NCBI GenBank assembly: GCA_020348925.1
Contig: CP070758.1
Location: 1,770,030-1,834,029, forward strand
Origin: Gemmatimonadota bacterium
GTDB taxonomy: Bacteria; JBHIER01; G020348925
Length of the DNA: 64,000 bases
Reading direction: 5' to 3'
Shown here: piece by piece, positions 5,812 to 51,319 of the stretch
Position numbering within the stretch: the first letter of the stretch is position 1
Layout of the letters: each line of letters opens with the position of its first letter
Notes under the pieces: model-generated
What the model was told of the DNA's origin: nothing
Seen by the model: only the letters and a program-made list of their open reading frames with translations
Databases searched by the model: none
Position numbers and translations under genes: made by a program

Positions 5812-6825
5812 ATGTTCTCTCTCTTTTCGGCCCTTCTTCTTCTTCACTCGCTCGTGTGGGCAGTACCGGAAGTATCCGGCACGGCCGGCACAGCCGATCC
5901 AGGTATCCATGTGTGGTACCTTGGTTCCAACGGCTGGGCCGTGAATATCGGCGAAAAATTGCTCGTCTTCGACTATCAGGAGGGCTCCGATCCAAATCCG
6001 CCCGCCGCAGGCGAAGGGCGAAACCTCCAGAGAGGGTATATCGATCCGGCTGAACTGGACTCCTTTGACACGTATGTGTTTGTGACGCACGCCCATCAGG
6101 ACCACTTCGAGCCCGTCATCCTGGACTGGCAGGAACAGGTCGACAGGATCAACTACTTTTTCGGTTGGGAGGCCGGCGACGATCCCGAACACCATTACAT
6201 GATCGGCCCGCGGGCCCAAGCGCAAGTTGGTGACGTGGAGGTCTACACCATCAACTCGTACCATACAGGCATCCCCGAGGTGGCCTTTCTGGTCCGGGTG
6301 GAGGGGTACACCATCTATCACAACGGGGATTATAAAGCGGAGTACCAGGAGGACTACGCATATCTCCAGACGGTTGCGGATGACATCGATATCGCCTTCG
6401 TCATCGGCATCACCTATGAAGGTCACCAGTATTTCCAGCAGACCCTGTGTCTGGCCGAGATGTTTCACCCGACGTACGTCTTCCCCATGAACCGCGAGGG
6501 GGACGAGTACAAGAGTCTCCAGTTCGCCCAGCTCTTGACGTCGCACGTATCCGGGGTCAACGTCCTTTGTCCCGAGCAGCGGGGCGATGACTACCTTATA
6601 GAGGGTGGCCGGGGAGATGTCAATTTAGATGGGGTAATAAATATCCTCGATGTCATACAAGCCGTGAATATTCTCCTGGAGATCGGAAATCCACCTATGG
6701 AATGTGAGAACCGGGCGGCCGATTGTAACGGTGATGAGAATGTTGATATTTTGGACATCCTCGGGATGATCAATGTGATTTTGGGAATTGGCGAGTGCCA
6801 ACCTCGATTGCCGCGGATTATGTAA
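5812..6825 (+). CDS. Secreted MBL-fold metallo-hydrolase with a C-terminal dockerin-type double Ca-binding repeat.
   Basis: HAHQDH metal-binding motif (HxHxDH). Hydrophobic N-terminus. C-terminal DVNLDGVINILDVIQAVNILL...CNGDENVDILDILGMINVIL is a dockerin type-I-like tandem repeat. Confidence 0.7.
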   Translation: MFSLFSALLLLHSLVWAVPEVSGTAGTADPGIHVWYLGSNGWAVNIGEKLLVFDYQEGSDPNPPAAGEGRNLQRGYIDPAELDSFDTYVFVTHAHQDHFEPVILDWQEQVDRINYFFGWEAGDDPEHHYMIGPRAQAQVGDVEVYTINSYHTGIPEVAFLVRVEGYTIYHNGDYKAEYQEDYAYLQTVADDIDIAFVIGITYEGHQYFQQTLCLAEMFHPTYVFPMNREGDEYKSLQFAQLLTSHVSGVNVLCPEQRGDDYLIEGGRGDVNLDGVINILDVIQAVNILLEIGNPPMECENRAADCNGDENVDILDILGMINVILGIGECQPRLPRIM

Positions 6826-7076
6826 AAGGATGGATTGGGAATAGGGATTGGGAAAGGAGAAACGTCACCGTTTGCAGCAGAGTCTAACGAGATCGTGGCA
6901 GTCCGGGGGATTGGTACGATATAGTGAATGCGACGTTTTTGCTCACCCCATCGAATACATCCAATGAAAGAGGTCCAGGCGATTTTTCGTGATGCAGTCT
7001 CATGCCCAGAGGAGAATGCTTCGTTCGAGCTTTCACTCGCAATGACAGTTTCGATGATAAAAATTGCAGGTCGAAA

Positions 7077-9620
7077 CTAACTTATGACTTGCGGGAAAAA
7101 TGTGATGTCGCCGAAGGCACGGCCCTCCGGGTCCGTGATGCGGAAGTAGAAGCCCCATTCGCCCGTCTTCTGGCAGACTTTGATCAGAACCGTATTCGTA
7201 CCTTCCAGTAATGCGACGGGAATGATATCATTATCGATGTAGGCTCCCCGGCGCCTGTTATTCAACCAGACCTCTTCGCCGTTGAGCCAGATTTTGGTCG
7301 CTTCGTTCGTTCCTACCCGGAGCTGGGCCTGTCGCAGGGTCGGGGAATGGAAGGTGAGAAGCCCGTAGGCAACGGTCCATTTGTCCGGATTCAGAAGCTC
7401 CTTCAGATTGACATAGCCATCGAAGAGATTGTCCCCAGCCTGTCGCCACCGGACTTTCCCCCCCTTGCCCTTATACGCTCTGTCGAGCTGTATCTCCTTC
7501 TCCGGCGGAAACTTTCGATGGAACCCCCCCTTATTTTCGAAGGGGCCGATAACCCACCAATCGGTCTCATGAGGGGTGCCTGTGGCGGTCAATTCCCCTC
7601 TGAGACGCTCCTCATCCCCGATGGTTTTCAAATATTCAAAAAGGAGATATATCAAACTCGTCTCCAGGGCAGTATTCTCGGTTTCGCGTGAGATCCGAAT
7701 CATCTCCTCAAAGAAATTCTGTTTGTCCTCGAGATCCCCAGAACTGCCGGCGATTGCTTCGGAGATGTAGTTCGCCTGATACCAGTCCATGCCCAACCCC
7801 GTCTCGATCGTGAGAAACGTCTGAGCGGCTTCCTGAAACTGAGCTACGGCCACGTTGTTCTCCCCTCGTTTCAGAGAGATCACGCCTCGCAGTAAAGCAC
7901 ATTCGGCCCTATTGAAATCGTTCTGGGCCAGCTTTATGGCTTTTTCAATGAAGGGCTCCATCTCTTCGGGATGCAGATCGTTGAACAGACTGGTCCAGAC
8001 AAAGCTTTGGACGATACTGAAATTGGTCTCATCCAAAATTCTATCTCCTGTGTTCCAAAACCATTCCTCGCGGAATTTTTTGGCAGCGACCGAATCGCCC
8101 ATCTCCTCGTATAAATCACTTATGAGAGTGACCATTGGAAAATTGTTGGGATACACCTTCATGGCCTCTCGAAACTCCTTTACCGCCTTTTCATGTTTTC
8201 CTTTTGCCCACAGGGCTTCTCCGGCGAGGCGATGACTGAATGATTTGATATTGTTACTCGGTGCTGCCTCGTAATATCGACGAAAAGCACGCAAGGCTTC
8301 GTCAAATTCACCCTGGTCCATGTATGCGCCGCCCATGTGCTCCCAGGGAAAGTGGAAATCGGATTTCAATCTCAAGGCCTCCTTATACTCATGAATGGCC
8401 TCGTCGAGATGGCCGGCCATCTGATAGATCTCTCCCATACTGTCGCGAGGATTCGGTTCATCAGGTGCCAGCTCCAGATATCGCAGGAGACTTTCGACCG
8501 CTTTGTCATGCATACCCCGAGAAGAGTAGGCATATCCCAGGAGATTGTACACAAGTTTGTAGGTTTTATCTATGCTCAGGGCTTCTTCAAACTGGGCAAT
8601 GGCCTCGTCAAAACGACTCAGAGCGTAATAGACGGATCCCAATCTATACCGCGCTTCTTTGTCCTTTGGAAAAACCTGAACCATGCGCTCATAGGTTTCG
8701 ATGATCTTTTTCGTATCACCCTGAACACTCGCATCGAGGGCCATAATGTTGTATCTCTCACGCTCAGTAACGCGATCGGCCAAGGCCACCGCCTTCCTCA
8801 CCACCCGCCGGGTATCATCGCTCCGACCCAAACCCGAATAAGCGCTGGCCAGACGAGCGTAGGCCGTGGCGAAGGTCGTATCTATTTCCACCGCCCTTTC
8901 AAACCGCTCGGCCGCCTCCTTATAAAAAACTTTGTACAACAATTCCAAGCCCTCGGCAAAAAAGCGGTAGGCTTCAATTGAATTGGTCGTGACGTCGGCC
9001 AGGTCCTGGTCAAATTCGACGACCCCTTTCAGCGTCAGCTTTAAACCGTCCCGAATCTGTCGGGTCAGTTCGTCAACTTTGGTAAAGACTTCCTCCAGAC
9101 CGCTGCACTCGACCCTCTCCGCCTTGAGCATATTTCCTGTCCGGGTATCAAAAAGCTGAGCGTCGATACGGATATGCTCACCCACACGGGCAAAGCTACC
9201 CACCAAGGCCGTCTCCAAACGACCCCCTCTGGCAATCGAGATCGCCAAGGCGGGGTCAAGAGACCTGTCCTCAGGAACCCCCATTCTTTCCTTCAGGGTT
9301 GTCAATGCATGTTCGCCCACCACGTTCACATAGCGGGATTGGGAGAGATCCGTAATCAACATCTCCATCAAACCACGCTCCATCCATTCAAGATCCTCGT
9401 CCTCGGTCACATTATCGAAATAGAAGACGACGATGGAACGGCGTTCTTCAGGCTGAATCTGCAAAGTGGTGGCCAACCGAGAGGACTCCTGGGTCTGACG
9501 AAGGGCATCATTGGTCAGCTTGATCTTCTGGCCAGCCTCCCTCTTCGAGCACCCCGGAAGCACCACACCCAGAGTCCATATAAGACCAATGATGATAATA
9601 TGTCGAATCGCAGCTTTCAT
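7077..9620 (-). CDS. TPR-repeat lipoprotein (847 aa) with an N-terminal TolB-N/CsgG-like periplasmic domain and a C-terminal beta-sandwich-like domain.
   Basis: Lipoprotein signal MKAAIRHIIIIGLIWTLGVVLPGC. At least 10 TPR-like 34-aa repeats (AYxxLGxxY...A...Y patterns) between about residue 230 and 640. Confidence 0.65.
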   Translation of the reverse strand: MKAAIRHIIIIGLIWTLGVVLPGCSKREAGQKIKLTNDALRQTQESSRLATTLQIQPEERRSIVVFYFDNVTEDEDLEWMERGLMEMLITDLSQSRYVNVVGEHALTTLKERMGVPEDRSLDPALAISIARGGRLETALVGSFARVGEHIRIDAQLFDTRTGNMLKAERVECSGLEEVFTKVDELTRQIRDGLKLTLKGVVEFDQDLADVTTNSIEAYRFFAEGLELLYKVFYKEAAERFERAVEIDTTFATAYARLASAYSGLGRSDDTRRVVRKAVALADRVTERERYNIMALDASVQGDTKKIIETYERMVQVFPKDKEARYRLGSVYYALSRFDEAIAQFEEALSIDKTYKLVYNLLGYAYSSRGMHDKAVESLLRYLELAPDEPNPRDSMGEIYQMAGHLDEAIHEYKEALRLKSDFHFPWEHMGGAYMDQGEFDEALRAFRRYYEAAPSNNIKSFSHRLAGEALWAKGKHEKAVKEFREAMKVYPNNFPMVTLISDLYEEMGDSVAAKKFREEWFWNTGDRILDETNFSIVQSFVWTSLFNDLHPEEMEPFIEKAIKLAQNDFNRAECALLRGVISLKRGENNVAVAQFQEAAQTFLTIETGLGMDWYQANYISEAIAGSSGDLEDKQNFFEEMIRISRETENTALETSLIYLLFEYLKTIGDEERLRGELTATGTPHETDWWVIGPFENKGGFHRKFPPEKEIQLDRAYKGKGGKVRWRQAGDNLFDGYVNLKELLNPDKWTVAYGLLTFHSPTLRQAQLRVGTNEATKIWLNGEEVWLNNRRRGAYIDNDIIPVALLEGTNTVLIKVCQKTGEWGFYFRITDPEGRAFGDITFFPQVIS

Positions 9621-9642
9621 TATAACTTGAACCGGGGAAACG

Positions 9643-11169
9643 TCACAGTACTTTCAATACAACCATGGTGATATCATCCTGGTATGAAGCACGCCCTGAA
9701 AACCGCTCCACCTCTTGAAGAATTTTCTCCAATACATCTCCGGCACTGCCCCCTCTTTCCTCCCTTATGATCCGTTCCAGTCTGTCTTCACCAAACATGA
9801 TTCCGTTACTGTCATCCGCCTCTGTGACACCATCCGTATAAAATACGACCACATCTCCGGAGGAAAGTTTCACTTCATCCTCTTCGTGCCGAATGTCATC
9901 CATCACTCCCAGCAGGAGCCCTCCCTTCTCCAAGTGTCGGATCTCTCCCCTGGTGTTGATCAAAACCGGGTAATTGTGACCGGCGTTGGAGAAACGGAGA
10001 CGTTTCTGTTCTGGGTCCAAGACGGCGAGGAAGAGGGTAGCAAAGGTCTCGGGTGTCGTGCTCCGGCAGAGCATACTGTTGAGTCTCGTCATGAGCTCGC
10101 TGACCGATTGGGTGGTCTCCAGCTGAGCCCGAAGCCCTGCCTGAAGCGTGGACATCAACAGAGCTGCCGGAGTACCATGGCCGGTGACATCACCGACGGC
10201 TATCCCTATCTTTCCCTCGTCGCACGGGATATAGTCGTAATAATCGCCGCCGACCTGTGTACTGGGAATATACATTCCCGCAATATCATAACCCCGAAGG
10301 GACGGAGGCCCTTTGGGCAAGAGCGTCAGTTGAATCTCTTGTGCCAGGGCCAGTTCCTTCTCCATCTCCCGTTTCTCCCGCAAGCCTTCGGTCATGAGGT
10401 TGAAGGTTCGGGCCAAATCACCGATCTCGTCGTGCGACTGAATCTCCACCTTCTGATCGAGATCACCTCTCGAGATGCTTCTCATAGCTCCGGCCAACCT
10501 CTCCAGCGGTCTCGTTAGGCGACGACTCAACAACGCCGACATGGTCACACCGACGGCGATATACAGGCTGAGCAGGGCGATGTTGCGCTGAACAGCTCTG
10601 GACAGCTCCTCCCTCATCTTTATGAGAGAAAATCCAACGGTCACACTCCCCAGGTTCAGATCTCCGTATTGAATATCCACGCTGACACGCTCAAGATCGT
10701 CCTGGGACTCCTCGGCCACCATCCCCCGGTCCAATTGGCGCACAACACCCGATCTGGCAACCTCATCGAGGACCTCAAGACCTTCAACATCAATAAGGTT
10801 TTCATTCAGAGCATGCGCTTTCAACTCGTTCTGAACGTCGTAGACCGCGATGTATACGATATCCTCGATGGTTCGCGGCACTTGCTCGATATAATCCTGA
10901 TAGAGTGACCAGTCCTGGGTCTCCAGGAGGCGAATGGAGGCGACATTGCGAGCGATGCGCTGCATCTGATTCTCAACCTCAGCTCGTTTCGTCTCGGTCT
11001 CCCGGATCGTGTAAAAATACGTCACAGAGGCAATTGTGGCGACGATGAAGAATACGACAAGAGCGGTTATCTTCGCATTTAATCCGAGCTTGAAAGGGAT
11101 ATTATAGAGGTTTAAGAGGGGACGAAAGATCCCCCGGATATTTGCAATGATGGTCGTTTTCCGGGCCAT
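9643..11169 (-). CDS. HAMP-domain PP2C (SpoIIE/RsbU-type) serine phosphatase with an N-terminal single-TM sensor domain.
   Basis: One TM (ITALVVFFIVATIASVTYFY). HAMP-like segment (LTRPLERLAGAMRSISRGDLDQKVEIQSHDEIGDLARTFNLM). PP2C motifs (GGDYYDYIP, VGDVTGHGTPAALLMS, FYTDGVTEA, DDITMVVLKVL). Confidence 0.8.
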   Translation of the reverse strand: MARKTTIIANIRGIFRPLLNLYNIPFKLGLNAKITALVVFFIVATIASVTYFYTIRETETKRAEVENQMQRIARNVASIRLLETQDWSLYQDYIEQVPRTIEDIVYIAVYDVQNELKAHALNENLIDVEGLEVLDEVARSGVVRQLDRGMVAEESQDDLERVSVDIQYGDLNLGSVTVGFSLIKMREELSRAVQRNIALLSLYIAVGVTMSALLSRRLTRPLERLAGAMRSISRGDLDQKVEIQSHDEIGDLARTFNLMTEGLREKREMEKELALAQEIQLTLLPKGPPSLRGYDIAGMYIPSTQVGGDYYDYIPCDEGKIGIAVGDVTGHGTPAALLMSTLQAGLRAQLETTQSVSELMTRLNSMLCRSTTPETFATLFLAVLDPEQKRLRFSNAGHNYPVLINTRGEIRHLEKGGLLLGVMDDIRHEEDEVKLSSGDVVVFYTDGVTEADDSNGIMFGEDRLERIIREERGGSAGDVLEKILQEVERFSGRASYQDDITMVVLKVL

Positions 11170-11245
11170 AATGATTGACGTTCACCTCTCGTTTCCACTG
11201 CTGTCTGTGCTTTGAGAACCGACAAGTGTTTGCCTGTCTTTCGAT

Positions 11246-14200
11246 CTATCCACCCCCGATTATGATATGCACGATGCACATCGTATCAAGAATATCGATC
11301 GCACCAGTGGCATCACAATCTGCAGCCATGAGCTGGCCGTACGAGGGAATCATATCCTGCAAAATAATGCTGATGTTCATTACGACATCAACGATGTCGA
11401 CGTGTCCATCCCCATCGATATCACCTTTTCGAGGGGCTTCAATCTGCATCGACAATCCGACCCGTTCCGTGTTCATGACCGAATCAACTACTGCTACCTC
11501 GAAGGTTCTGCACTCAACAGAGTCTGGCACGCCTGACAGACAGCCGGTAGCATCCAAGGTCAGGCCGCACGGCAACATCCCCGAGTATACGAGCCACGTA
11601 TAAGGGGGCCAACCCCCTGCGGCCGAAAGTGTGTGTTCGTATTCGAATCCCATCTTTCCGGGTGGAAGAGTATCCGTACTGATCGCCAGGGGCAGATCAC
11701 AGACAATACTGTCCGAGAAGGGACCGGACCAGTTGCCGGCCACGTCCCGATATCTGACGGACACCCGCTTGTGTCCGGATCCGCCGCTTCCGCCGTATTG
11801 GGAGAGATCCCAGTCGTGCTTCGTGCTGTCGAGCGGCTCAGCCGGACTCCATGTCTGCCCGTTGTTTGAGAACTGCATGAGAGCGCCTGACCCCATTCCG
11901 CTCATCTCATCGACGGCGCTCAAAAAAGAGAGCGTCACCACAAGACTCGTCGTCGTATCGGCACCTCCGGAAATCGAAATTGTCCCCTGGCTGGGGGCGG
12001 TGGCGTCGAAGGCGAGCGTGACCGACGCACTTTTGTTGTGATCGACATTGTCCGCCCTGTCCTGAAGCCAGACGTAGACTGTGTGCGTACCCTCTGCTGC
12101 TGCTGAGAGGTTCAGGGGATATAAAGTGGTAAAGGTCCCGTCGTCCACGAAGGCCGGAGGTGAACTCAGACGATAGTATGCCCCCTCGACTCCGGAAAGA
12201 TCATCGGGATTGGTCCAGGTGAGGACAAAGGTTGAGTCGTTGGTCCATTCGGGTGGGTCGACTGTGAGGTCCAGGGGCGATTCAGGCGGTTCGGTGTCGA
12301 TCATGATTCGATAGTGTGCCGCCGGTCCCCACAGGCAGACGTCATCCCCGGCCCGGCAGTGGAAGTAGTATGTACCATCAGCGAGGCTATAATAGCCCTT
12401 CTCTCTCATTGTGTTATCTCTGGTCTCATCAGGCATAGTCTCGGGACTCTGGTCGAAAACGTAACTATATCCGATGACACCTGAGAGATCGTAAGGTTCC
12501 TCCCATTGAAACAGAACATCCACGGCCGAATACCAGTCCTCTTCATCCGGGTGCGTCGGGCTGCTGAGAAGAGGTGCTGAGGGCGGACTCGTGTCCTTAT
12601 AAAATTGCCAGTTCCACTCACCGGATTCACCCTCCACGTTGCCCGCATCGTCCACGGCCTTGAAATAGACAATATAGCTCCCGTTCGGCAGGGATGAAAA
12701 CTCCGACAGGGTCCAGCCGTCGCTGTCCCAATTCCTACCCGAAACATTCGTGAAGAGAACCGACCATTCCCCTGTGTAAGAATTGATCTGATACCAGCCA
12801 TCATCGAGGGCCATATCGTCATCGAAACCGAAGTTCGAGAAGAGGGGTGCCCGACTGTAGTACTGATTCTGGGGCTCACCGATGGTCTCCATGGTGGGGC
12901 TCTGATAATCGCCGACTCCAATCGGTCCGGCCAAAGCAGCCACCGCCGCTATGCTTGCTCTGACAACCTCAGTGGCATAGGGCAGGTTCAATGTCCCCAA
13001 AGTATCACCATCGCTGTGATAATAGGGCGTCCAGTCCGGAGATCCCCACAATTGCGCATCGATGGCGAAAATGGCTTTGTACCCGAGCAGGGCAAAGGAG
13101 TAATGATCGCTGCCCCATTGCTCGAAACCCGTATTTATCACCAAGGGCTCCGCCGTCGTATGTTGGTTCACCCTGTCGGCAAAAAAGAGGGCCAAATCGT
13201 AGGAATCGCTGTCACCATAGATGTTTATGTCCCACGTATCATTCGGAGGATCATCAACATAGGCGATCATGTCGAGGTTGATCACGCCGCGGATATCCAT
13301 ATCCCGGTCGGAGGCCCAATTGGCATAGTGCTCGCTACCCAATAATCCCTGCTCTTCACCTGAGAAACAGATGAAGAGTATGGTCGCATCGAAATCGTAC
13401 ATGCTGAGCACACGCGCCGCTTCGACGACCGCAGCCGTGCCGCTGGCGTTGTCATCCGCCCCCGGGGCTGAAATCCACGAATTGCCGTAAACATTTTTGG
13501 AATCGTAATGTCCACACAGGATATATTTCTGGCTCGTATCCGCTACGCCGGGATGAACAGCAACGACATTCCTCCACGTTTGTCCGCTGCAGAGTTCGCC
13601 GCCATAGGTATAGAAATCATAAGAGACGGAAAGACCGAAACTGGTAAAACGGTCGGACAAATATGCGGCCGCTGCCTGACACGAATCCGTGCATGAATAT
13701 CTCGTCCGGAAATCCTGAAGCCGTTTTATGGTTGCCCTGATTTCGCTCTCGGAGACATTGGACAGAATGGATTCGAGAAAAGCATACATTTCGGGATCTG
13801 TGGAGGGAACAGGGGGTTGCGGTTTCTTTCTGTCCCGGGGCAAACGGTCTTTGGAGATTCTCGTTAATCCGTAACCGAAGCGGGAGGCTCTTTCCGCCTC
13901 TGAAGGAGAGGCCCGCAGCAAAGCCGTGCCATTTCTGTAATCGAGCACTTCAGCGTGCTCCGCAATTTTCATCCGGTTGCCTTCGGGAACATAGAGGAGA
14001 TAGTCGTCTTCGGTTCCCTGGTCGTTTCTCAAGACATTGAGCTCCAATCCCACCCGATACAATTCATCCTTCTGGTCCTCGGATATTTTAACGAAAGCCC
14101 TCCCCTCGTAGACTGCCAAGACCGTGATTTCGAAGTCGGTCAGATACTGTTCATGTTCGGGGCTATCCACATCTATCAAAGCAAGGAAGCTCTCCTGTTC

Positions 14201-14302
14201 ACTCCGGACCGTCCCAACGACAGAGAGCACTACAAAGAAACATATCAAAAGCCCCAAAACACCGGCTTTCACACGTGGTTTCCCCTGACACCCAAAACGC
14301 AT
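11246..14302 (-). CDS. Secreted multidomain M28-family aminopeptidase. It carries PPxAP/HYRI repeat modules, a 'putative Ig' domain and a C-terminal dockerin.
   Basis: The signal peptide starts at the ATG at 14302 (MRFGCQGKPRVKAGVLGLLICFFVVLSVVGTV); the ORF also extends upstream to 14512. M28 motifs: HYDS, NSWISAPGADDNASGTAAVVEAARVL, FSGEEQGLLGSEHYA. Modules homologous to the 45938 and 48881 paralogs: DTSPPSAPLLSSPTHPDEEDWY...GTYYFHCRAGDD...HYRIMIDTEPP. Putative Ig domain: LPPGKMGFEYEHTLSAAGGWPPYTW. Dockerin: GDIDGDGHVDIVDVVMNISIIL...DCDATGAIDILDTMCIVHII. Confidence 0.75.
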   Translation of the reverse strand: MRFGCQGKPRVKAGVLGLLICFFVVLSVVGTVRSEQESFLALIDVDSPEHEQYLTDFEITVLAVYEGRAFVKISEDQKDELYRVGLELNVLRNDQGTEDDYLLYVPEGNRMKIAEHAEVLDYRNGTALLRASPSEAERASRFGYGLTRISKDRLPRDRKKPQPPVPSTDPEMYAFLESILSNVSESEIRATIKRLQDFRTRYSCTDSCQAAAAYLSDRFTSFGLSVSYDFYTYGGELCSGQTWRNVVAVHPGVADTSQKYILCGHYDSKNVYGNSWISAPGADDNASGTAAVVEAARVLSMYDFDATILFICFSGEEQGLLGSEHYANWASDRDMDIRGVINLDMIAYVDDPPNDTWDINIYGDSDSYDLALFFADRVNQHTTAEPLVINTGFEQWGSDHYSFALLGYKAIFAIDAQLWGSPDWTPYYHSDGDTLGTLNLPYATEVVRASIAAVAALAGPIGVGDYQSPTMETIGEPQNQYYSRAPLFSNFGFDDDMALDDGWYQINSYTGEWSVLFTNVSGRNWDSDGWTLSEFSSLPNGSYIVYFKAVDDAGNVEGESGEWNWQFYKDTSPPSAPLLSSPTHPDEEDWYSAVDVLFQWEEPYDLSGVIGYSYVFDQSPETMPDETRDNTMREKGYYSLADGTYYFHCRAGDDVCLWGPAAHYRIMIDTEPPESPLDLTVDPPEWTNDSTFVLTWTNPDDLSGVEGAYYRLSSPPAFVDDGTFTTLYPLNLSAAAEGTHTVYVWLQDRADNVDHNKSASVTLAFDATAPSQGTISISGGADTTTSLVVTLSFLSAVDEMSGMGSGALMQFSNNGQTWSPAEPLDSTKHDWDLSQYGGSGGSGHKRVSVRYRDVAGNWSGPFSDSIVCDLPLAISTDTLPPGKMGFEYEHTLSAAGGWPPYTWLVYSGMLPCGLTLDATGCLSGVPDSVECRTFEVAVVDSVMNTERVGLSMQIEAPRKGDIDGDGHVDIVDVVMNISIILQDMIPSYGQLMAADCDATGAIDILDTMCIVHIIIGGG

Positions 14303-14634
14303 ATCGAACTGAAACAATTTAAAGAGTTGAAAACACATACGTCCTTTTTTCTCAATCATAGTAACCCTGAAAAATAGCCTTTTATACCGTCTTAACGCAA
14401 GGAAATTCTTGCGTTCCAGGAAAAAAGAATACCGTAGAGATCTCGTATTGAATCTTGGCACATGCATCACGTTGAAGCGAACCGGAAACTTCTCCATAAA
14501 AAAACCTTGCACATCTTTTCAAAAAAAATTAAGTTATGTAAAATCATGGGGAGGGGGTTGAAACCATCCCACACCCCCGATGAGTGGACTTTCGGTGGAA
14601 ATTTGGACGTTTACAGAGAAAGCAGGAGAGCCCA

Positions 14635-16836
14635 ATGAGAAGACCATTTATTGTGAGCGTAATATTTTTGTGCGTCGTTCTTGTCGCGAGCGTCAGTGCC
14701 CAGAGCCGCACGGATCGCGAGGTGACGCTTGGAGCCAAACTGGAAGCCATCCAGCGAGCTATTCAGGAGAAGGGGGCGAACTGGACCGCAGGTATGACGG
14801 AGATCTTTCAGCTTCCTGAAGAGGAGCGGATGTTGATGTACGGGTGCGCCGATTCCATCTCCCAGGACAAAATCCCGGAGGAGCAGCAGCTCATGCGGTA
14901 CTCGTGGCAGCCGGAGAAATTCGATTGGCGCTTGAAGGACGGCGCGGACTGGACGACACCGGTCAAGAATCAGGGTAGGTGCGGAAGCTGCGTCGCCTTC
15001 GCCACAATCGGAACCCTGGAAGGGCAGCTCAATATTTTCTATGACGACCCGTACCTCAATATGGATCTCTCCGAGCAGTACCTCTTCGCCTGCGGGGGCG
15101 GGACCTGCAATGAGGGTATGAACACCGACCTCGCCTTTCGCTACGTCCTCGGAAACGGCGTTCCGGACGAGGACTGCTTCCCCTATACATCAGGACTGGC
15201 GGGCATCGATAGACCGTGCGGTGACGCCTGCCCCGACTGGCAGGAACGGATCCTCAAGCCCTCCTGTTACGGGGCCGCCGCCGCTGATAAAGACATCAAA
15301 GCACCGGCTGACATCAAAGAGCAGATTCTCCAGGGTCCCGTCTGCGTCACTATGGCCGTCTTCGAGGATTTTGACTCGTACACAGGCGGGATTTACCAAC
15401 ACGTTTGGGGTCAATACGAGGCCGGCCACGCCATCGTTATGGTCGGTTGGGACGACACGACCGAGCCCCCCTGCTGGATTGTCAGAAACAGCTGGGGCTC
15501 CGGATGGGGAGAGAGGGGCTATTTTCGGATACGGATGGGGACGAACGAGGTCGGGATTGAGGACCAGGCCCTCTACGCACGATTCGGCGACGTTCCGGAG
15601 GGAAGGCTCTCGAGCGGTGGCCATCAGTTCGGAGATGTGGATGTGGGAGATTCCGAAAATTGGCTGTTGAACATCTACAATGAAGGAGGTGCTCCCCTAG
15701 AAATATACGAGTACCAATCGAACAAGCCCAATTACTTCATCAGCTCGCCTGCGTCCTTCCCTCAGACTGTCACCCCGGGTGGAACCCTTGGCGTCACTCT
15801 CGTCTTCACTCCTGACACCCTGGGGGAGGAATTCGGCCGCATACGATTCCCGAGCAACAGCTGTCACTTTCTCTCCGTAAAATTGCGCGGGACAGGTGTC
15901 ATCCACAACGTGAGGACAAGTCAGAAATCCATCGAAAAGACCATGGTGGAAGGGGACATCATGACCGTGCCCCTGACCATGACCTACATCGGAGATACCA
16001 CCCTCACCTACCAAGTTGAAATTCTCAGGGAATGGCTCTCTGTTCAACCCGACAGCGGCACACTTGAAACCGGGGGTAGTGTCGATTTCACCGTTACCCT
16101 CGATGCGTCGAACCTGGAACCCGGCGAGTACAGAACAAATATTCTGATCAAAACGGACGATCCCACCGACAAACTCGTCGTCGTCCATATTGTTCTCAGT
16201 ACGGAGGAGGCCGCCGGGGTCGCCCTCACCATCCCGCCCACTGCCATACCCATTGACCGGACAATTCAATTGGGTCTGTCCATCGACAACAAGAACCGCA
16301 TCGAAATGCCCATCAGGGATGTTGCTCTGCACATCGGTTACGATGCGACGTTTATGGAGCTCCGCGAAATTTCATCCACCCTCCGGACCGAGCACATGAC
16401 CGCCTTTCAGTGGTCCGAAGCCGAACCAGGTCAAATTACCCTCTCGATCTCCGACGGCAACGGCAACTGCATCGTTCCCGGAACGGAGCCCATAGCCCAA
16501 TTTTTCTTCGAAGCCCGCGACGGCATATCATGCGGCGACAGCGTGACGCTCACCATCACCGAGGCGACCCTCATAGACACCCTCGGCAGTGCCCTCGAGG
16601 TCCGGCTGAACAACGACCCCTGCCTCCTGCTCTGCAAGGGGGATGTGAACGCTAACGGTACGATAGAGATAGATGATGTTATTGAGGTTATCCGTTTGAT
16701 TCTTGAGAATGGTTGTTTCGAGGAATGGACTCCAGAGTGCTGGTCCTCTGACTACAACGACGACGGAAGCATCGACGCCATGGACCTTGTGTGCATGGTC
16801 AACGTTATCTTGGACAGGGAGGCTGGTTCTGATTGA
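14635..16836 (+). CDS. Secreted papain-like (C1A) cysteine peptidase with an Ig-like/CARDB-like region, a cohesin-like domain and a C-terminal dockerin.
   Basis: RBS aggagag sits 5 nt before the ATG at 14635. Signal peptide MRRPFIVSVIFLCVVLVASVSAQ. Catalytic triad context: QGRCGSCVAF (Cys), GHAIVMVGWD (His), NSWGSGWGERGYFRI (Asn). The ALHIGYDATFMELREI...ITLSISDGNGN segment resembles cohesin. Dockerin: GDVNANGTIEIDDVIEVIRLIL...YNDDGSIDAMDLVCMVNVIL. Confidence 0.8.
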   Translation: MRRPFIVSVIFLCVVLVASVSAQSRTDREVTLGAKLEAIQRAIQEKGANWTAGMTEIFQLPEEERMLMYGCADSISQDKIPEEQQLMRYSWQPEKFDWRLKDGADWTTPVKNQGRCGSCVAFATIGTLEGQLNIFYDDPYLNMDLSEQYLFACGGGTCNEGMNTDLAFRYVLGNGVPDEDCFPYTSGLAGIDRPCGDACPDWQERILKPSCYGAAAADKDIKAPADIKEQILQGPVCVTMAVFEDFDSYTGGIYQHVWGQYEAGHAIVMVGWDDTTEPPCWIVRNSWGSGWGERGYFRIRMGTNEVGIEDQALYARFGDVPEGRLSSGGHQFGDVDVGDSENWLLNIYNEGGAPLEIYEYQSNKPNYFISSPASFPQTVTPGGTLGVTLVFTPDTLGEEFGRIRFPSNSCHFLSVKLRGTGVIHNVRTSQKSIEKTMVEGDIMTVPLTMTYIGDTTLTYQVEILREWLSVQPDSGTLETGGSVDFTVTLDASNLEPGEYRTNILIKTDDPTDKLVVVHIVLSTEEAAGVALTIPPTAIPIDRTIQLGLSIDNKNRIEMPIRDVALHIGYDATFMELREISSTLRTEHMTAFQWSEAEPGQITLSISDGNGNCIVPGTEPIAQFFFEARDGISCGDSVTLTITEATLIDTLGSALEVRLNNDPCLLLCKGDVNANGTIEIDDVIEVIRLILENGCFEEWTPECWSSDYNDDGSIDAMDLVCMVNVILDREAGSD

Positions 16837-17552: not shown

Positions 17553-18332
17553 ATGAAGAACCTGATTATCGTTATCGCACTAATTTTTTCTATCATTAGT
17601 GGATGTACCAAGTCCACTTCAACAGGTACAAGTGGCAACAGCCAGACTTGGTGTCTTTGGATTGGTGCCGACAAGGATACATATGTATGGTTGGAATATC
17701 CGGACAGCCAATGGGGAAAGCAAGGGTATCTGGCTGTAGCATATTTAGGGGATCACAAACGGAGTTTTGTCCACTTTGTTCTTCCAAACCTTCCTGACGG
17801 AACTGAAATTCTCGAAGCATATATGGAGCTCTATCATGGTGGACAGAATGAGGACGGTTATACTGATGACCTCGATATATTGGTACAGCGTGCATCGGGT
17901 TCCTGGAGTCCTGAAACGTTAACTTGGAATAATCAACCGCCTTTCTCCCGAGCTACTGAGTTCACGATCCACCTGCGAAGCAGAGCGTGGTGCGGTTCGG
18001 AGGAAATTAAACATATTGTAACTCAGATGTTCGAAGATCCGGAGAACGACTATGGCTTCATTATTGATTTCTTCTCAGCTTCAATAACTGTTGGGATAGA
18101 AAAAGGATTTCATGCAAATAATTTTGATCGCACTGCTTCGGACATGAAGAATGCTCCGCGCTTGCTTGTTAAAGTTGAGCTCCCTTCCGGGAAAACCATT
18201 AATGACATTACAATGCCTCCACTGGCATCGGACAATGATCTCGGATTCCCCCCAGGAACGGAGATTTTAATGCTTCGCTATAATAATGGTGCGGAGTGGC
18301 CTGAAAACTGGAACGTGGTTGCTGCCGAATAA
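17553..18332 (+). CDS. DNRLRE-domain lipoprotein.
   Basis: RBS aaagggggga upstream. Lipoprotein signal MKNLIIVIALIFSIISGC. Motifs DTYV...SFVHFVLPNLPDGTEILEAYMELY...LTWNNQPP match the DNRLRE-domain pattern (...TWNNQP). The gene has lower GC than its neighbours. Confidence 0.5.
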   Translation: MKNLIIVIALIFSIISGCTKSTSTGTSGNSQTWCLWIGADKDTYVWLEYPDSQWGKQGYLAVAYLGDHKRSFVHFVLPNLPDGTEILEAYMELYHGGQNEDGYTDDLDILVQRASGSWSPETLTWNNQPPFSRATEFTIHLRSRAWCGSEEIKHIVTQMFEDPENDYGFIIDFFSASITVGIEKGFHANNFDRTASDMKNAPRLLVKVELPSGKTINDITMPPLASDNDLGFPPGTEILMLRYNNGAEWPENWNVVAAE

Positions 18333-24234: not shown

Positions 24235-24250
24235 AAAGGATATGGTTCAC

Positions 24251-45537: not shown

Positions 45538-45937
45538 TCCAGGTTTCCCCTTTTACCACCACCCCTCCACCATTAAACACCTTGACAGTGAGTCTGGGAT
45601 GTCATATCTTTTGTTCCAAAGAATAGCGGAGAAGGGGTCGAGCCGGATGGACAGGGACCCCGTGAACGGTTGGACACGGAGGAGAATTTATATCGCAGAT
45701 CGATTCCTCCGTCAATTTTTTTAGGAGCATGATAACAACTGAAAGATGATGGGAGCGAGCAGAGCCATAGGTAACCTGAAAAAGGATCACACTCAATCTC
45801 GGACCGTGAGATTGCCTGGGCAAAAAAATACCGAAAAGACTCTTTTTTTGACTTAAGTCAAGGTGTTCCAAAATGTTCTTATATATTTTCAAATTTCCAA
45901 TATGAAGTGCACGGACGATACACATAAAGGGCACGAT

Positions 45938-48691
45938 ATGTTTTTCAGACTCATTCTTCTTTTTGTAAGTACTGCTATGTTTTGGCCAGTTCTGGTGCAC
46001 GGCCAGGAGATTCTCAAGCAATTGCAGGCGCCGGGCTCTGAACCGAGGGGCTTGACCTGGGACGGCCACTCCCTGTGGTGTGCTGATGCCTCGGCACAAA
46101 GGGTCTATCAAATCGATCCTGACGACGGTCAGATCATCTCCTCATTCGACTACTCTATGGACTTCCAGTACGGAGGGCTGGGCTGGAGCCCCGAGGGATA
46201 TCTTTGGATCACAGATTACCGGGAGAGTCAAAGCTGGTTCGACAAGGTCCACCCGACATCGGGCAGCGTGATCTCCTCGTTCCACTGCCCAGGCGGGTGA
46301 ACCGCTCGAGGTGCAGGGGTGGCCAGTCTGGCCATCGACACTCTCTGGTACTCCGACAGGAGGCAAAAATATATCGGTAAAACGACCACATCAGGGTATT
46401 TGGTCGAAAACATTGAAACGTTCGACTCATTGATTCGCGACATAGCCTGGGACGGGACCCATATCTGGGCCATATCACTCGAGGGAACGATCAAGAAATT
46501 CAGCACCTCAGGCGATCTGATCGAGACATACGCCGGGCTCCTCAGCGGCGGATGGGGGCTGACCTATGATGGTGCCTATGTGTGGGCCTCCGATCCGGGA
46601 ACGAACAAAATTTACAAACTTCTCTTCCCGGGCTTGGGCGACAAAACACCACCTTCCGCTCCCGCGCTCACATCCGACACGCACCCATCCCAGGACGACT
46701 GGTACAGGCAGGACAGTCCCACCCTCAACTGGACCCCCCCTGCAGATCCCTCGGGCATAAGCGGATACAGTTACGCAGTGAACCACGAATCCACATTTTC
46801 TCCGGATACAACCAGTGAGGGTTGGCTGACAACCGCCACGTACAGCGACCTGACTGACGGCACATGGTATTTCCACTGCCGGGCCAGAGACGGCGTAGGC
46901 AATTGGAGCACGGCGAATCATTACCGTATCAGAATCGACACACAAGCCCCTGCCCCCCCCATCAACCCCACCGTTTTTCCCAGCGGATGGACCAACGACA
47001 GTATTTTCCAAGTCCACTGGACTAATCCTCCCGACAGTTCGGCCATAGCCGGTGTCTATTACAAGATCGGACCACCTCCTGAACACGGGGAAGATGGGAC
47101 GTTTTCTTCGACGATACCTCTATTTCTCGCAGCCCCGGCTGAAGGCGAAAACGCTGTGCATCTCTGGCTCGAAGACGGCGCAGGGAACAAGGACGAGGCC
47201 TCTCGCGCCGATGCCGTTCTCCCGTATGATGCCACCGGACCTCAGGAGGGGACTATTTTAATAAACGCCGGCGCTGAAGCTACAGTATCAACCACGGTCA
47301 CTTTAGCCAATCTAAACGCTGTTGATGCCTTGAGCGGCATGGAACCAGGGGCACAGATGCGGTTCAGCAACGACGGTACGACCTGGTCTCCGGCCGAAGA
47401 CTATACGAGCCTCAAGACCAACTGGGATCTCTCCTCGTATGGGGGGACGAGTCAACCGGGACCCAAGACGGTCTCCGTCATATACCGCGATGCCGCCGGC
47501 AACTGGTCAGATCCCTTCAGCGACGACATTCTTCTCTCTGAACCCCTGGCTATTGTCACCGATTCCCTGCCCGGAGGTGCTGTGGGCTTTGCCTACGAGG
47601 AGACTTTGGTTGCAACAGGAGGGGTACCGCCTTATAGCTGGAGCATATCCTCCGGAGCGCTTCCCAACAATCTGACGCTCACTCCCGACGGCACAATCAC
47701 CGGTGTGCCTGATGAAGCCGGTCCTTCGAATTTTATCGTCGAGGCGATCGACCCCTATTCGAGTTCTCAGTTCCGAGCTTACACAATCACCATATTCATC
47801 GGGGCAACCAAAGGGGACATAAACGGCGACTCCGAGGTCGATCTTCGCGATATACTCCCTGTTGTCGGATATATTCTGGGACGAAGCGGGTTGACGCAGT
47901 CGCAGCTCTGGTCGGCTGATGCCTTTCCTGACGGATCAATCGACCTGTCCGACCTGGTGGCTTTAGCCCATCTCATCGTCGGGCAATCGTCCGGAGCCGC
48001 GAGGGTCTCATATTCTGGGGGAGGTCCATCCGTTCTCCGGGCCTCACACACATATGATGCTCCATCATCAACCGTGACTCTGTTCCTCGACAACGGAGTA
48101 CCTGTCGGTGGCCTTCAACTCGAGGTACGATTACCCCGGGACGCAACGCTTCGCAAGCCCCCTCAAGTCACCGACCGATGCGGATCTTTCACCGTGGACT
48201 ATACCAAGAATCACGACGATCTCACCGTCCTGACGTACACCCTCAACGGAGACGCGATCTTACCCGGGTCAGGACCCCTCTTGATGCTGTCTTTATCCTG
48301 CCCGGAAGATACGAAGGAACAGAACGCCATAATAGAAAAAGCATTTCTGGTCGGTGTCAGGGGCGAACCGCTCCCTCTCGACATTCGGACAGAATCTGTA
48401 GTGACTGCCCCCGTGGCACACGGTTTGGCACGCAACTATCCCAATCCTTTCAATCCTGAGACGTCCATCAGTTTTTCACTTCCTGCTGAGAACACCGTTT
48501 CCGTAATCATCTATGATGCTTTGGGCCGCAGGGTGAGAACAATCGCCGAGGAGACATTGAAGGCCGGAGTTCACACCATGCTTTGGGACGGACGTGATGA
48601 AGGCGGCCACGCATCGCCGAGCGGAGTCTATTATTGCAGAATTGACGGGGGAGATGTCGTTCACACACTAAAGTTGGCCCTCATCAGATAA
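45938..48691 (+). CDS. Secreted beta-propeller / PPxAP-module / putative-Ig / dockerin / cohesin-like protein ending in a T9SS C-terminal sorting domain. It is interrupted by one in-frame TGA at 46298-46300, presumed recoded (selenocysteine?).
   Basis: Signal peptide MFFRLILLFVSTAMFWPVLVHGQ. The ORFs 45863..46300 and 46319..48691 share a frame and are separated only by a TGA after ...FHCPGG. The second ORF has no signal peptide yet ends in a T9SS CTD (NYPNPFNPETSISFSLP...SGVYYCRI). Propeller-blade repeats: GLTWDGHSLWCAD...VYQID, IAWDGTHIWAIS...IKKF, GLTYDGAYVWASD...IYKL. Dockerin: GDINGDSEVDLRDILPVVGYIL...DGSIDLSDLVALAHLIVG. Confidence 0.6.
46298..46334 (+). promoter_or_regulatory. In-frame UGA with a downstream hairpin (tggccaGTCtggcca, 46320-46334). 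Candidate bacterial SECIS-like recoding element.
   Basis: The TGA at 46298-46300 is followed 19 nt later by a 6-bp perfect stem with a GUC loop. The E. coli fdhF SECIS apical loop is (A)GGUC(U). A homologous position in the paralog 48881..51319 has the same arrangement. Confidence 0.5.
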
Positions 48692-48880: not shown

Positions 48881-51319
48881 ATGAAACAATGGCAACGGTT
48901 GCTTTCGGTTTTTCTTGTATCACTCCTACCGGTCGCCGGATTCGCTCAACGCATTGTCAAAGAGTTTGATACTCCGGGTCCTGAGCCGAGGGGCTTGACC
49001 TGGGACGGAACATATCTCTGGTGCGCTGATGCCGAAGAGGATTCCATATTCAAGATCGATCCTGAGTCAGGTCAAGTTATTCACTCTTTCTATTTCAGCA
49101 TGACTTTTGAATTTTCCAGAGGAGGAGGAATAGCGTGGAGCGGCGACGGTGCCCTGTGGGCCACCCGTAGTACCTATTTTTATAAACTTGACGCGAACAC
49201 CGGTCAGAGCATAACAAACTTTCACTGTCCTGGGGGCTGAAGCGTCCGACCGGCGGGCGTGACCCGCCAAGGGAGTTACCTCTGGTATTACGATCAAACA
49301 TCCAATTACGTTGGGAAAACGACCACCGGAGGGAGTCTTCTGGCCAATTTCATCCCGAGCGACAACACTCTCCGAGACCTTTGTTGGGACGGCACCCATC
49401 TCTGGACCATGAACATCTCAGGCGAGATAAAGAAATATACCACATCCGGAGTTCTCGAAGAAACCGTTACCGATCTTCTCCCAAGAGGATGGGGCATAAC
49501 GTTCGACGGCTCACATCTGTGGGCCTCGGATCCTCAAACCGATAAGATCTATCAAATAGCACTCTCCGATGACTCAGATCCCCCCGGAGCGCCGCTGATC
49601 CAAAGCGCAACGCATTCCTTCGATTCAGCCTGGTACAGCGATCCCGATCCGGTTTTCACCCTCACGCAACCTGAAGATCCTTCGGGTATCGCCGGATACA
49701 GCTATCTCCTGGATGAACACGCTGAGACCGTCCCTGACAATTCTGTCGACGGAACAGGAACGACGGTCGCCTATGTATCCATCCAGGATGGAAAATGGTA
49801 TTTCCACTGTCGGGCTCAGGATGGGGCCGGGAATTGGGGCGAGACAAATCACTACAGAATTCAGATCGATACGACACCTCCGGCAGGTGGCACCATCCTC
49901 ATCGAGGATGACGCCGACACGACGAAATCCTTAGTGGTAACCTTGGGCAATCTCCAAGCCGAAGATACTCTCTCGGGAATGGGTTCCGGTGCAGCCATGA
50001 AATTCAGCAACTACGGATCCGTCTGGTCAGACGAAGAGCCTTTCAGGGACACCCGCACGGGCTGGGATCTCTCACAATATGGCGGAAATGATTCCTCGGG
50101 TCTGAAAAGGGTCTTCGTCTCTTTCCGAGATGTGGCCGGGAACTGGTCCCAGCCCCTCTTCGATGAGATCATCTACAGCGCACCTCTTGTCGTTGAAACA
50201 GAATCGCTGAGTGCAGGTACCCTGGGTTTCGCTTATGCCGAAACGCTTTTCGCCTCAGGCGGTTGGCCACCCTATGAGTGGGAGATTGGTGGGGGTGCAT
50301 TACCTCCTGACCTGGAACTCGATACTACTGGCATCATATCAGGGAAACCGGATTCGGCCGGAACATTCACTTTTACGGTGACTGTAACTGACGCCAACAT
50401 GTCCGCAACAATGAAGGATTATACAATCACCATTCACATTGAGGCCGAAAAGGGAGACGTGAACGGCGACGCGGATGTCAATATTCTTGATATCATCGCC
50501 GTTGTTCGATATATCCTCGGATTGGAGGAGTTTACCCCTCTTCAAATATGGGCGGCTGACGTCATAACCGACGGCGCCATCGATGTAACGGACATCCTGG
50601 GCATCGTCAACCTCATCCTCGAATCGCCTGGTGGAGGACGGTTGATGCTCTCACAGGGGCAGGCCCTCATCGGCCTCGAAGAAGACACACGCTTTCCCAA
50701 TGCCCACAATACCACAGCTGTTACCTTGAAGAGTCAAATACCTGTGGCTGGAATCCAGCTGAACATAAGGCTGGCTTCAGGTTCAAAGCTAACACGCCCG
50801 CCTCAATTGACACAGTGGAGTCAAACTTTTCAATGCAGCTATAAAATCAACGAGAATAATGTCTTACTTCTGTTGTACAGCCTGTCACACGAGATCATTT
50901 CACTGCCCTATCCTGTTCCAATTGTGAATCTCCGTATCCCTGAGGATGCCTACCCCGTATACATTGAAAGTGTCATCGTCGCTGACAAAAACGGCCAGCC
51001 AATCACCGTCGGCAACGATCCTGAAAAGCTGAGCTCTGCCCGGCAGGGGACGGACGTTCAAAGCCATCCGAATCCCTTTAATACGGAAACGTTCCTGTCG
51101 TTCACCCTTGAAAAGAGAGAATACGTCACACTGTCTGTCTACAATGTCCTGGGTCAAATGGTCAGAACACTCGTGAGCGGGGAGTGTGATCCGGGCGAAC
51201 ATGTGGTGAGCTGGGACGGCACGGACTGGACCGGCAATACACTTCCCAGCGGAGTCTATTTCAGCCGAATAGAAGTGGGAAATATCGGAACCGTTAGGGA
51301 GATGCTCCTTTTGAAGTGA
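48881..51319 (+). CDS. Paralog of 45938..48691 with the same domain order (beta-propeller, PPxAP module, putative Ig, dockerin, cohesin-like, T9SS CTD). It is interrupted by an in-frame TGA at 49238-49240, presumed recoded.
   Basis: RBS gagaggtgg upstream. Signal peptide MKQWQRLLSVFLVSLLPVAGFAQ. The ORFs 48758..49240 and 49259..51319 share a frame and are split only by a TGA after ...FHCPGG. Dockerin: GDVNGDADVNILDIIAVVRYIL...DGAIDVTDILGIVNLIL. T9SS CTD: HPNPFNTETFLSFTL...YNVLGQMVRTLV...SGVYFSRI. Confidence 0.6.
49238..49268 (+). promoter_or_regulatory. In-frame UGA with a downstream hairpin (ggcgggCGUGAcccgcc, 49252-49268). Candidate SECIS-like recoding element.
   Basis: The TGA at 49238-40 is followed 11 nt later by a 6-bp GC stem with a CGUGA loop (a GU dinucleotide in the apical loop). 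It is positionally equivalent to the hairpin at 46320-46334, although the sequences differ. Confidence 0.5.

Follow-up and report, generated by a model that had tools for sequence, protein, structure and literature searches.

Introduction

A system similar to the one reported here, a cellulosome-like complex, was proposed in 2021 for the Cloacimonadota 'Ca. Stygibacter' from genome sequence only (Williams et al. 2021, PMC8542988). There, dockerins are borne by S8 and C25 peptidases and by glycoside hydrolases (GH) of the GH18 and GH57 families, and the scaffoldin, a protein of 3,755 amino acids (aa), combines tandem cohesins with a C-terminal domain (CTD) of secretion system type IX (T9SS) (PMC8542988). 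Both bacteria and archaea are known to have cohesins and dockerins outside cellulosomes, and the archaea surveyed earlier were without multi-cohesin scaffoldins, according to the part of PMC9012536 that cites Peer et al. 2009; anaerobic methanotrophic (ANME) archaea encode proteins that combine a dockerin with as many as 5 cohesins (PMC9012536). Here we describe a window, that is, the whole 64-kb stretch of DNA that was analysed (64,000 nucleotides (nt), contig CP070758.1), of an NCBI metagenome-assembled genome (MAG) labelled Gemmatimonadota bacterium (locus tags JSV84_). Within 11 kb of it (positions 5812-16836) lie genes for three hydrolases with C-terminal dockerins: a hydrolase of the metallo-beta-lactamase (MBL) fold, an M28 aminopeptidase, and a C1A papain-like protease that also has a cohesin of its own. 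We think it probable that components of a peptidase-carrying, non-cellulosomal cohesin-dockerin network are encoded in this genome, and that the network would form a cell-associated proteolytic assembly. None of the papers searched names dockerin together with Gemmatimonadota, and the leading match for dockerin with Gemmatimonadetes proved to be irrelevant. Given the 2021 proposal for Cloacimonadota, we treat the locus as a new case of a known type.

As in 'Ca. Stygibacter', cohesin proteins with a T9SS-type sorting domain are found here together with signal-peptide enzymes, peptidases among them, that end in a dockerin. The cargo differs, with M28, C1A and MBL hydrolases in the window in place of S8, C25, GH18 and GH57 enzymes, and the scaffoldin spacers are immunoglobulin-like (Ig) domains of the choice-of-anchor D type instead of the carbohydrate-binding modules (CBM) CBM2 and CBM3. 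Also unlike 'Ca. Stygibacter', one enzyme has its own cohesin, there are small proteins in which a dockerin, a cohesin-like domain and a sorting CTD follow one another (Doc-Coh-CTD proteins), and the genome bears the Gemmatimonadota label. With the clostridial cellulosome (C. thermocellum CipA, C. cellulolyticum CipC) the locus shares the two-repeat calcium-binding dockerin at the enzyme C-terminus, a C1 cohesin fold nearest to type I cohesins, and multi-cohesin scaffoldins in the same genome. It differs from the clostridial system in having a diderm host, in that no CBM3 was seen, and in that a CTD-like tail, which we take for a T9SS sorting signal, replaces anchoring through domains of S-layer homology (SLH) or through sortase. 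None of the five dockerin proteins of the window (MBL, M28, C1 and two non-catalytic surface proteins) is a glycoside hydrolase. The system would work like a cellulosome yet not be one sensu stricto, with no GH cargo in the window and no SLH or sortase anchoring; we call it 'cellulosome-like', not a cellulosome, because no glycoside hydrolase is involved.

Two further comparisons apply. As in known non-cellulosomal cohesin and dockerin proteins, the two modules occur outside cellulose degradation and sometimes in one polypeptide, and an Archaeoglobus fulgidus cohesin (2xdh) is the best structural match of the surface-protein cohesin-like domain; unlike in the archaea surveyed earlier, proteins with 3 and with 5 cohesins are encoded here, together with clear hydrolase cargo. 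In the toxin and glycosidase complexes of Clostridium perfringens (GH84C cohesin; 2jh2, 2w1n, 2o4e) the cohesin is likewise borne by an enzyme and not by a dedicated scaffoldin, and these three structures were among the top Foldseek matches of the C1 cohesin. Unlike here, the host of those complexes is Gram-positive, the enzymes are glycosidases and not peptidases, and there is no T9SS.

Results

Three hydrolases with C-terminal dockerins

The catalytic domains of the three enzymes were recognised by Pfam (Lactamase_B_3, 33.1 bits; Peptidase_M28, 113.7 bits; Peptidase_C1, 169.2 bits), and signal peptides, judged by eye, stand at the N-termini of all three. The HxHxDH motif of the MBL active site is intact (THAHQDH), the metal ligands of M28 are recognisable in its sequence, and the catalytic Gln, Cys, His and Asn of the C1 protease are invariant in an alignment of 12 orthologues. 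At NCBI the C1 protease, UCE20027.1, is annotated 'hypothetical protein JSV84_06710' despite its 169-bit Peptidase_C1 match.

The initial annotation had placed a dockerin in each of these open reading frames (ORFs), and all three were found where it had located them. Against the gathering cut-off of Pfam Dockerin_1 (PF00404), 22.9 bits, the MBL dockerin scored 40.2 bits and the C1 dockerin 26.3 bits in the whole protein and 35.6 bits as a module alone. The M28 dockerin passed only as a module alone (29.4 bits), the whole protein reaching 21.6 bits. A scan that included the other large ORFs brought the total of Dockerin_1 proteins in the window to five, the two others being surface proteins (27.8 bits for 46319-48691 and 39.1 bits for 49259-51319). 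All five dockerins consist of two tandem segments of ~22 residues, each with a calcium loop rich in D and N (positions 1, 3, 5 and 12) followed by a helix; in the three hydrolases the loop pattern D-x-[DN]-x-[DN]-G...D occurs twice per dockerin. Examples of such loop pairs are DVNLDGVINILD...DCNGDENVDILD, DIDGDGHVDIVD...DCDATGAIDILD and DVNANGTIEIDD...DYNDDGSIDAMD.

Generic EF-hand-like or thrombospondin type-3 repeats had been named in the initial annotation as the explanation that would speak against dockerins. EF-hand models gave 12-20 bits on the C1 dockerin, under their own cut-offs and lower than Dockerin_1, and no thrombospondin type-3 model matched it; both origins of the repeats were rejected on these scores. 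A single-sequence search of the PDB with the C-terminal fragment of the C1 protein returned weak matches only, to troponin C and to dockerins (E >= 0.07).

The additional domain of the C1 protease

The domain between the Ig domains and the dockerin of the C1 protease had been described as cohesin-like. To characterize it by profile, the 145-residue domain was excised from each of 12 full-length C1 orthologues and aligned (alignment A2); these orthologues are 46-100% identical, and all keep protease, cohesin and dockerin. Pfam Cohesin matched 10 of the 12 orthologous domains (best E 3e-7), and the top PDB matches of the A2 profile were the cohesins 6kgc and 6kg8 (E 8e-4 to 9e-4) and 4ums (E 8e-3). 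An AlphaFold (AF2) model of the C1 domain (pLDDT 84, pTM 0.80) superposed on solved cohesins, nine-stranded beta jelly-rolls of ~140 residues; in a Foldseek search of the PDB its best 50 matches were all cohesins, those of type I being best (TM 0.82-0.85), and sequence identity to solved cohesins was only 12-17%. Taken together, the predicted fold, the Pfam matches of the orthologues and the PDB profile matches indicate that the domain is a genuine but divergent cohesin.

Cohesin and dockerin are fused without a linker, LLLCK being followed directly by GDVNANG, and in the C-[KR]-G-D junction the C, G and D are invariant in the 12 orthologues. Two cysteines near the junction, C633 and C667, are also invariant in the 12 orthologues (alignment A1), and most of them also keep a C...C pair in the dockerin linker (NGCFEEWTPECW), which P0007, P0009, P0011 and P0012 lack. 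The junction cysteines may form disulfides that fix the cohesin and dockerin modules. A T9SS sorting domain is added in 2 of the 12 orthologues, one of which is UCE19121.1, a C1 protease paralogue of the same genome that is 48% identical and is extended at its C-terminus by a tail with the motif NPFNP. In the alignment, P0009 and P0011 have an extra C-terminal tail with NPFNP at its end, and precomputed Pfam data give PF18962 for P0011.

A homologue search with the C-terminal 210 residues of the C1 protein found nothing, even though the database contains a 100% identical protein; this empty result is a limit of the word index and not a biological result.

Multi-cohesin proteins encoded by the same genome

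The A2 profile was run on 1.84 billion representative proteins (threshold E<=1e-3) and matched 524 of them, the best being multi-cohesin proteins in which it matched 8, 6, 5 and 4 stretches. Eight of these were examined by Pfam: all have Cohesin, most have Ig domains of the choice-of-anchor D type, P0250 and P0251 passed Por_Secre_tail, and the C-termini of P0248 and P0255 gave FlgD_ig or sub-threshold CHU_C matches only. Three matches of the profile, UCE17402.1, UCE17761.1 and UCE19583.1, are encoded on the 5,038,017-bp contig from which the window was taken (Table 1). The initial annotation had suggested looking for a scaffoldin elsewhere in the genome, and UCE17402.1, with three cohesins, and UCE17761.1, with five cohesins and a dockerin, answer to that description. 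By Pfam, the three proteins contain no CBM, and no SLH domain was found in the cohesin proteins scanned. The sister MAG b2.sp2_bin.59 encodes a C1 orthologue (P0003), an 8-cohesin protein (P0247) and the 4-cohesin P0250 with its sorting domain. As judged from sequence, scaffoldin-like multi-cohesin proteins are thus part of the gene content of the source genome.

Surface proteins combining dockerin, cohesin-like and sorting domains

Three proteins of the window scored above the cut-off of TIGR04183, the T9SS type A sorting domain (23 bits): the two surface proteins already mentioned (34.5 bits for 46319-48691 and 27.3 bits for 49259-51319) and the product of 18701-20761 (38.7 bits). This agrees with the earlier statement that the lineage bears a T9SS. 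In both surface proteins a domain of ~130 residues separates the dockerin from the sorting domain, and its two window copies are 29% identical. When an alignment of 12 homologues of this domain (A3) was compared with the C1 cohesin profile by hhalign, the probability was 82% (E 1e-5). Its AF2 model (pLDDT 82.6) matched mainly cohesins in Foldseek, best the non-cellulosomal A. fulgidus cohesin 2xdh (E 2.7e-7). From these models and profiles we consider the domain cohesin-like, on weaker evidence than for the C1 cohesin.

A C-terminal cassette of the M28 protein, ~430 residues long and made up of OmpL47/Big_13-type Ig domains, He_PIG and dockerin, is common to both surface proteins. M28 residues 583-1016 are 46% identical to surface-protein orthologues, and window positions 11246-12760 correspond to 46319-47971 and 49259-50617. 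The shared cassette points to shuffling of modules between dockerin proteins that are enzymes and those that are not.

An in-frame TGA in the surface-protein genes

Both Doc-Coh-CTD genes are longer than their listed ORFs, from which an upstream ORF in the same frame is parted by a single TGA. In both, the signal peptide and the opening blades of a beta-propeller come from the upstream ORF. The TGA contexts are SFHCPGG-TGA-TARGAGV (46298-46300) and NFHCPGG-TGA-SVRPAGV (49238-49240). The NCBI call for the gene 48881..51319, UCE20052.1 (49259-51319), covers the part after the TGA only; it is 100% identical to P0121, and P0121 and 12 non-identical database homologues (P0122-P0133) all begin just past the TGA. 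The 13 homologous genes compared, which lie on 9 contigs (two in the window and 11 on 8 other contigs, L001, L002 and L012-L017), all have TGA at the same alignment column, and never TAA, TAG or a sense codon. No Cys codon or other sense codon was found at that column in the 13 close homologues, and the distant homologues, which were read by eye and not formally aligned, had neither Cys nor selenocysteine at that spot. The TGA directly precedes the third WDGxxLW propeller motif, and sub-threshold Pfam Vgb_lyase matches span it. A stop at this codon would cut the propeller fold and leave a T9SS cargo without a signal peptide.

A reassigned genetic code was rejected, TGA being the terminator of 12 of the 24 other ORFs checked (13 of all 26). 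A window-wide scan for other ORF pairs split by TGA returned antisense shadows only. Downstream of the TGA in genes of the 686 type, a 6-bp stem with the loop CGUGA follows an 11-nt spacer; 97.6% of its cells are paired over 7 sequences, and one pair occurs as CG, GC and UG. Among the controls, slid windows paired 36-48% of cells, and 24 of 500 shuffles equalled the real stem. The stem of the 790-type genes is invariant and so uninformative, and folding-energy z-scores around the TGAs were not significant. Rfam gave no family in the whole window or around the TGAs, and no tRNA gene was found in the 64 kb.

Selenocysteine is the most likely reading of the in-frame TGA, one in which we have reasonable though far from full confidence on the sequence comparisons above. 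Going further, we put at about even the chance that the Doc-Coh-CTD proteins are an undescribed family of exported selenoproteins, in which a selenocysteine (U) in the H-C-P-G-G-U loop of the N-terminal beta-propeller would give, after type IX export and plugging into the cohesin-dockerin network, a redox-active or metal-binding surface site beside the peptidases. A 2026 review of prokaryotic selenoproteomes makes no mention of the terms Gemmatimonad, propeller, secreted, periplasmic or signal peptide. In L012 and L013 (JGI Ga0209635_10087820 and Ga0209427_10121818) a dockerin-like calcium loop (SGDVNGDGNADRLD and KGDVNCDGQITPGD) comes straight after the propeller, with no long Ig region; this form would be a minimal propeller-dockerin version of the TGA-propeller family.

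Gene neighbourhood

The coordinates of the genes and modules are collected in Table 1. The genes for the M28 peptidase, the HAMP-PP2C phosphatase and the TPR lipoprotein lie on the minus strand, separated by gaps of 76 and 22 nt, and likely form an operon, of which the lipoprotein gene would be the final one. The M28 and C1 genes are divergent, with 332 nt between them. The same four-gene order was found in the Logan contig L010, whose C1 protein is 52% identical: a TPR protein of 849 aa, a HAMP-SpoIIE protein of 502 aa and an M28-He_PIG-dockerin protein of 996 aa, divergent from C1. L003 and L004 showed no neighbours in common with the window, these contigs being too short to tell. A contig scan with the full-length C1 alignment gave 5 loci, none of them in the source genome. 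The M28 ORF (11246-14302, minus strand) sits within a longer ORF opening at 14512, and the C1 ORF (14635-16836, plus strand) within one opening at 14584.

Table 1. Genes and modules of the window, and multi-cohesin or related proteins of the same genome
Feature	Coordinates	Strand	Size	Content
MBL-fold (Lactamase_B_3) hydrolase	5812..6825	+		signal peptide; C-terminal dockerin, residues 268-324 (~nt 6613-6783)
TPR lipoprotein	7077..9620	-	847 aa	lipobox LPGC; many TPR Pfam families
HAMP + PP2C (SpoIIE-family) membrane phosphatase	9643..11169	-		Pfam SpoIIE 182 bits, HAMP 66.9 bits
M28 aminopeptidase, UCE20026.1	11246..14302	-		Peptidase_M28, OmpL47/Big_13-type Ig domains, He_PIG, C-terminal dockerin (~nt 11255-11428)
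C1A papain-like protease, UCE20027.1	14635..16836	+		Peptidase_C1, two Ig (choice-of-anchor D / ASH) domains, cohesin, dockerin
Predicted cohesin module of C1 protease	16204..16638	+		ORF residues ~541-685; orthologue Pfam, PDB profile, AF2 and Foldseek
Dockerin of C1 protease	16639..16818	+		Dockerin_1 35.6 bits, module alone
Surface protein (outside 5812-16836)	45902..48691	+		signal peptide, beta-propeller with in-frame TGA (46298-46300), Ig domains, He_PIG
Surface protein 45902..48691, C-terminal part		+		dockerin ~47810-47971, cohesin-like ~48029-48391, T9SS type A sorting domain ~48437-48676
Surface-protein paralogue, same architecture (outside 5812-16836)	48881..51319	+		in-frame TGA (49238-49240)
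Paralogue 48881..51319, C-terminal part		+		dockerin ~50450-50617, cohesin-like ~50666-51028, sorting domain ~51068-51295
UCE17402.1			1783 aa	signal peptide, 3 Pfam cohesin stretches, 11 Ig domains, CTD-like tail
UCE17761.1			1880 aa	5 cohesin stretches, dockerin, CTD-like tail
UCE19583.1			1104 aa	DUF11 repeats, cohesin, dockerin, CTD-like tail

Two PP2C phosphatases and a TPR lipoprotein had been described as interleaved with the hydrolase genes. This holds for the lipoprotein and for the phosphatase at 9643-11169, which also gave a weak SiaA-like match; the second, larger SpoIIE-family phosphatase (426-2861, 811 aa) lies upstream, outside the cluster, and is not linked to the dockerin genes. 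In the lipoprotein, a C-terminal non-TPR region of ~170 residues, starting from GTPHETDWWVIGPF, has no Pfam family, and the N-terminal half matched TIGR04510 ('peptide modification system cyclase') below threshold, with 154 bits against a cut-off of 400.

Directly downstream of the cluster, 17553-18332 encodes a lipoprotein with a DNRLRE/CBM96 domain, and the 686-aa protein of 18701-20761, with the sorting domain scored above, has no family match in its first 600 residues; both products are further secreted proteins. At 24215-26842 lies a gene for an 875-aa protein with three TonB_C stretches and TPR repeats, not linked to the dockerin genes.

Discussion

The above findings support, at the level of encoded parts, the cellulosome-like proteolytic assembly that the initial annotation had put forward: dockerins on the hydrolases, a cohesin in one of them, multi-cohesin proteins in the same genome and T9SS sorting domains. 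In our model, the hydrolases would be exported by the Sec pathway, and their dockerins would then bind cohesins in a calcium-dependent manner, the binding being predicted. The enzymes would in this way be gathered on the multi-cohesin scaffoldins and the Doc-Coh-CTD proteins, which would themselves be exported by the type IX system and may be fixed to the cell surface. With its dockerin the C1 protease would be cargo, and with its cohesin it would serve as an adaptor. The outcome would be an endopeptidase, an aminopeptidase and a metallohydrolase that are held at the cell and break down external protein. The HAMP-PP2C phosphatase and the TPR lipoprotein may regulate the system or help to assemble it, which is a guess.

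Several observations weigh against this model. The T9SS sorting domain (TIGR04183) was not detected in the MBL, M28 and window C1 proteins, and in a diderm these enzymes might remain periplasmic or use another exporter. Export is thus the weak point of the model; dockerin enzymes of this kind might cross the outer membrane by riding on cohesin proteins that do have a sorting domain. The window copy of the C1 cohesin has no match to Pfam Cohesin (PF00963), even at E<=10. Structural matches of the surface-protein cohesin-like domain reach TM 0.58-0.70 with a few CBM2 modules among them, and the best PDB match of its profile, the cohesin 5n5p, is weak (E 0.039). The CTD-like tails of UCE17402.1, UCE17761.1 and UCE19583.1, which were not scored with the T9SS sorting-domain model, gave FlgD_ig or sub-threshold CHU_C matches, with NPFNP seen by eye. 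As to gene context, the C1 homologues in L008 and L009 have unrelated neighbours, and in the compared loci no synteny was found for the MBL gene, which only proximity ties to the block. Should dockerins abound in the genome, chance may account in part for three of them lying within 11 kb, and many non-cellulosomal dockerins have no known partner (PMC9012536).

Some of these points fit another explanation, by which the three hydrolases work independently as secreted or periplasmic enzymes, their orphan dockerins give the protein stability or have a binding partner that is not a cohesin, and the clustering reflects a dockerin-rich genome. Dockerins that lack a partner are common in organisms that make no cellulosome (PMC9012536), a high background density is suggested by the five dockerin proteins of the window, and the missing sorting domains and the lack of synteny support for the MBL gene are as expected on this account. 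It has to be set against the finding that the C1 protease and multi-cohesin proteins of its genome have cohesins of the same subtype, against the pairing of M28-dockerin and C1-cohesin-dockerin genes conserved at 52% protein identity (L010), and against the joint presence of cohesin and dockerin in 12 of 12 C1 orthologues; we regard it as unlikely, though worth keeping in mind. The C1 cohesin-dockerin and surface-protein dockerin-cohesin pairs could instead act on themselves, as head-to-tail homo-oligomers or as an intramolecular lock, with no assembly on scaffoldins. Both modules do stand in a single chain, with an invariant and linkerless C-[KR]-G-D junction. Proteins with both a cohesin and a dockerin are known from Archaeoglobus fulgidus, and the fold searches returned the non-cellulosomal cohesin structure 2xdh from that organism and nothing further from it. 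Binding between archaeal dockerins and cohesins, which would also suit self-association, was verified in work cited by PMC9012536, as that passage of the article has it. Self-association leaves the dockerin-only MBL and M28 enzymes and the multi-cohesin CTD proteins of the same genome unexplained, and a linker of zero length would make an intramolecular fit unlikely, so that we give this possibility little credence.

Artefactual domain calls, with generic EF-hand pairs and a generic beta-sandwich taken for dockerin and cohesin, are essentially excluded. The failure of the window cohesin in Pfam, the 21.6 bits of the whole M28 protein against a cut-off of 22.9, and troponin C as the first match of the single-sequence PDB search (E 0.07) could all be cited for it. 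They are outweighed by Dockerin_1 outscoring every EF-hand model, with EF-hand scores below cut-offs, by the top 50 structural matches being cohesins throughout, and by the Pfam and PDB matches of the orthologous domains and their profile. These considerations are consistent with a peptidase-carrying cohesin-dockerin network, and the cellulosome-like reading of the locus is supported by its predicted parts.

Assembly by cohesins and dockerins has mostly been studied as a tool of Gram-positive bacteria for degrading cellulose. Here its parts are encoded in a diderm labelled Gemmatimonadota, where they carry peptidases and where the cohesin proteins end in tails of the T9SS type; beside the Cloacimonadota proposal, this would be a second case at the level of a phylum. 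The locus offers a compact set of parts, with five dockerins and three cohesin-type modules in 64 kb and named scaffoldin candidates in the same genome, and it corrects the public annotation of UCE20027.1 from 'hypothetical protein' to a protease-cohesin-dockerin protein. If the in-frame TGA does encode selenocysteine, current annotation truncates a whole family of surface proteins at the UGA, and the locus would reveal a family of exported selenoproteins that the 2026 review of prokaryotic selenoproteomes apparently does not cover.

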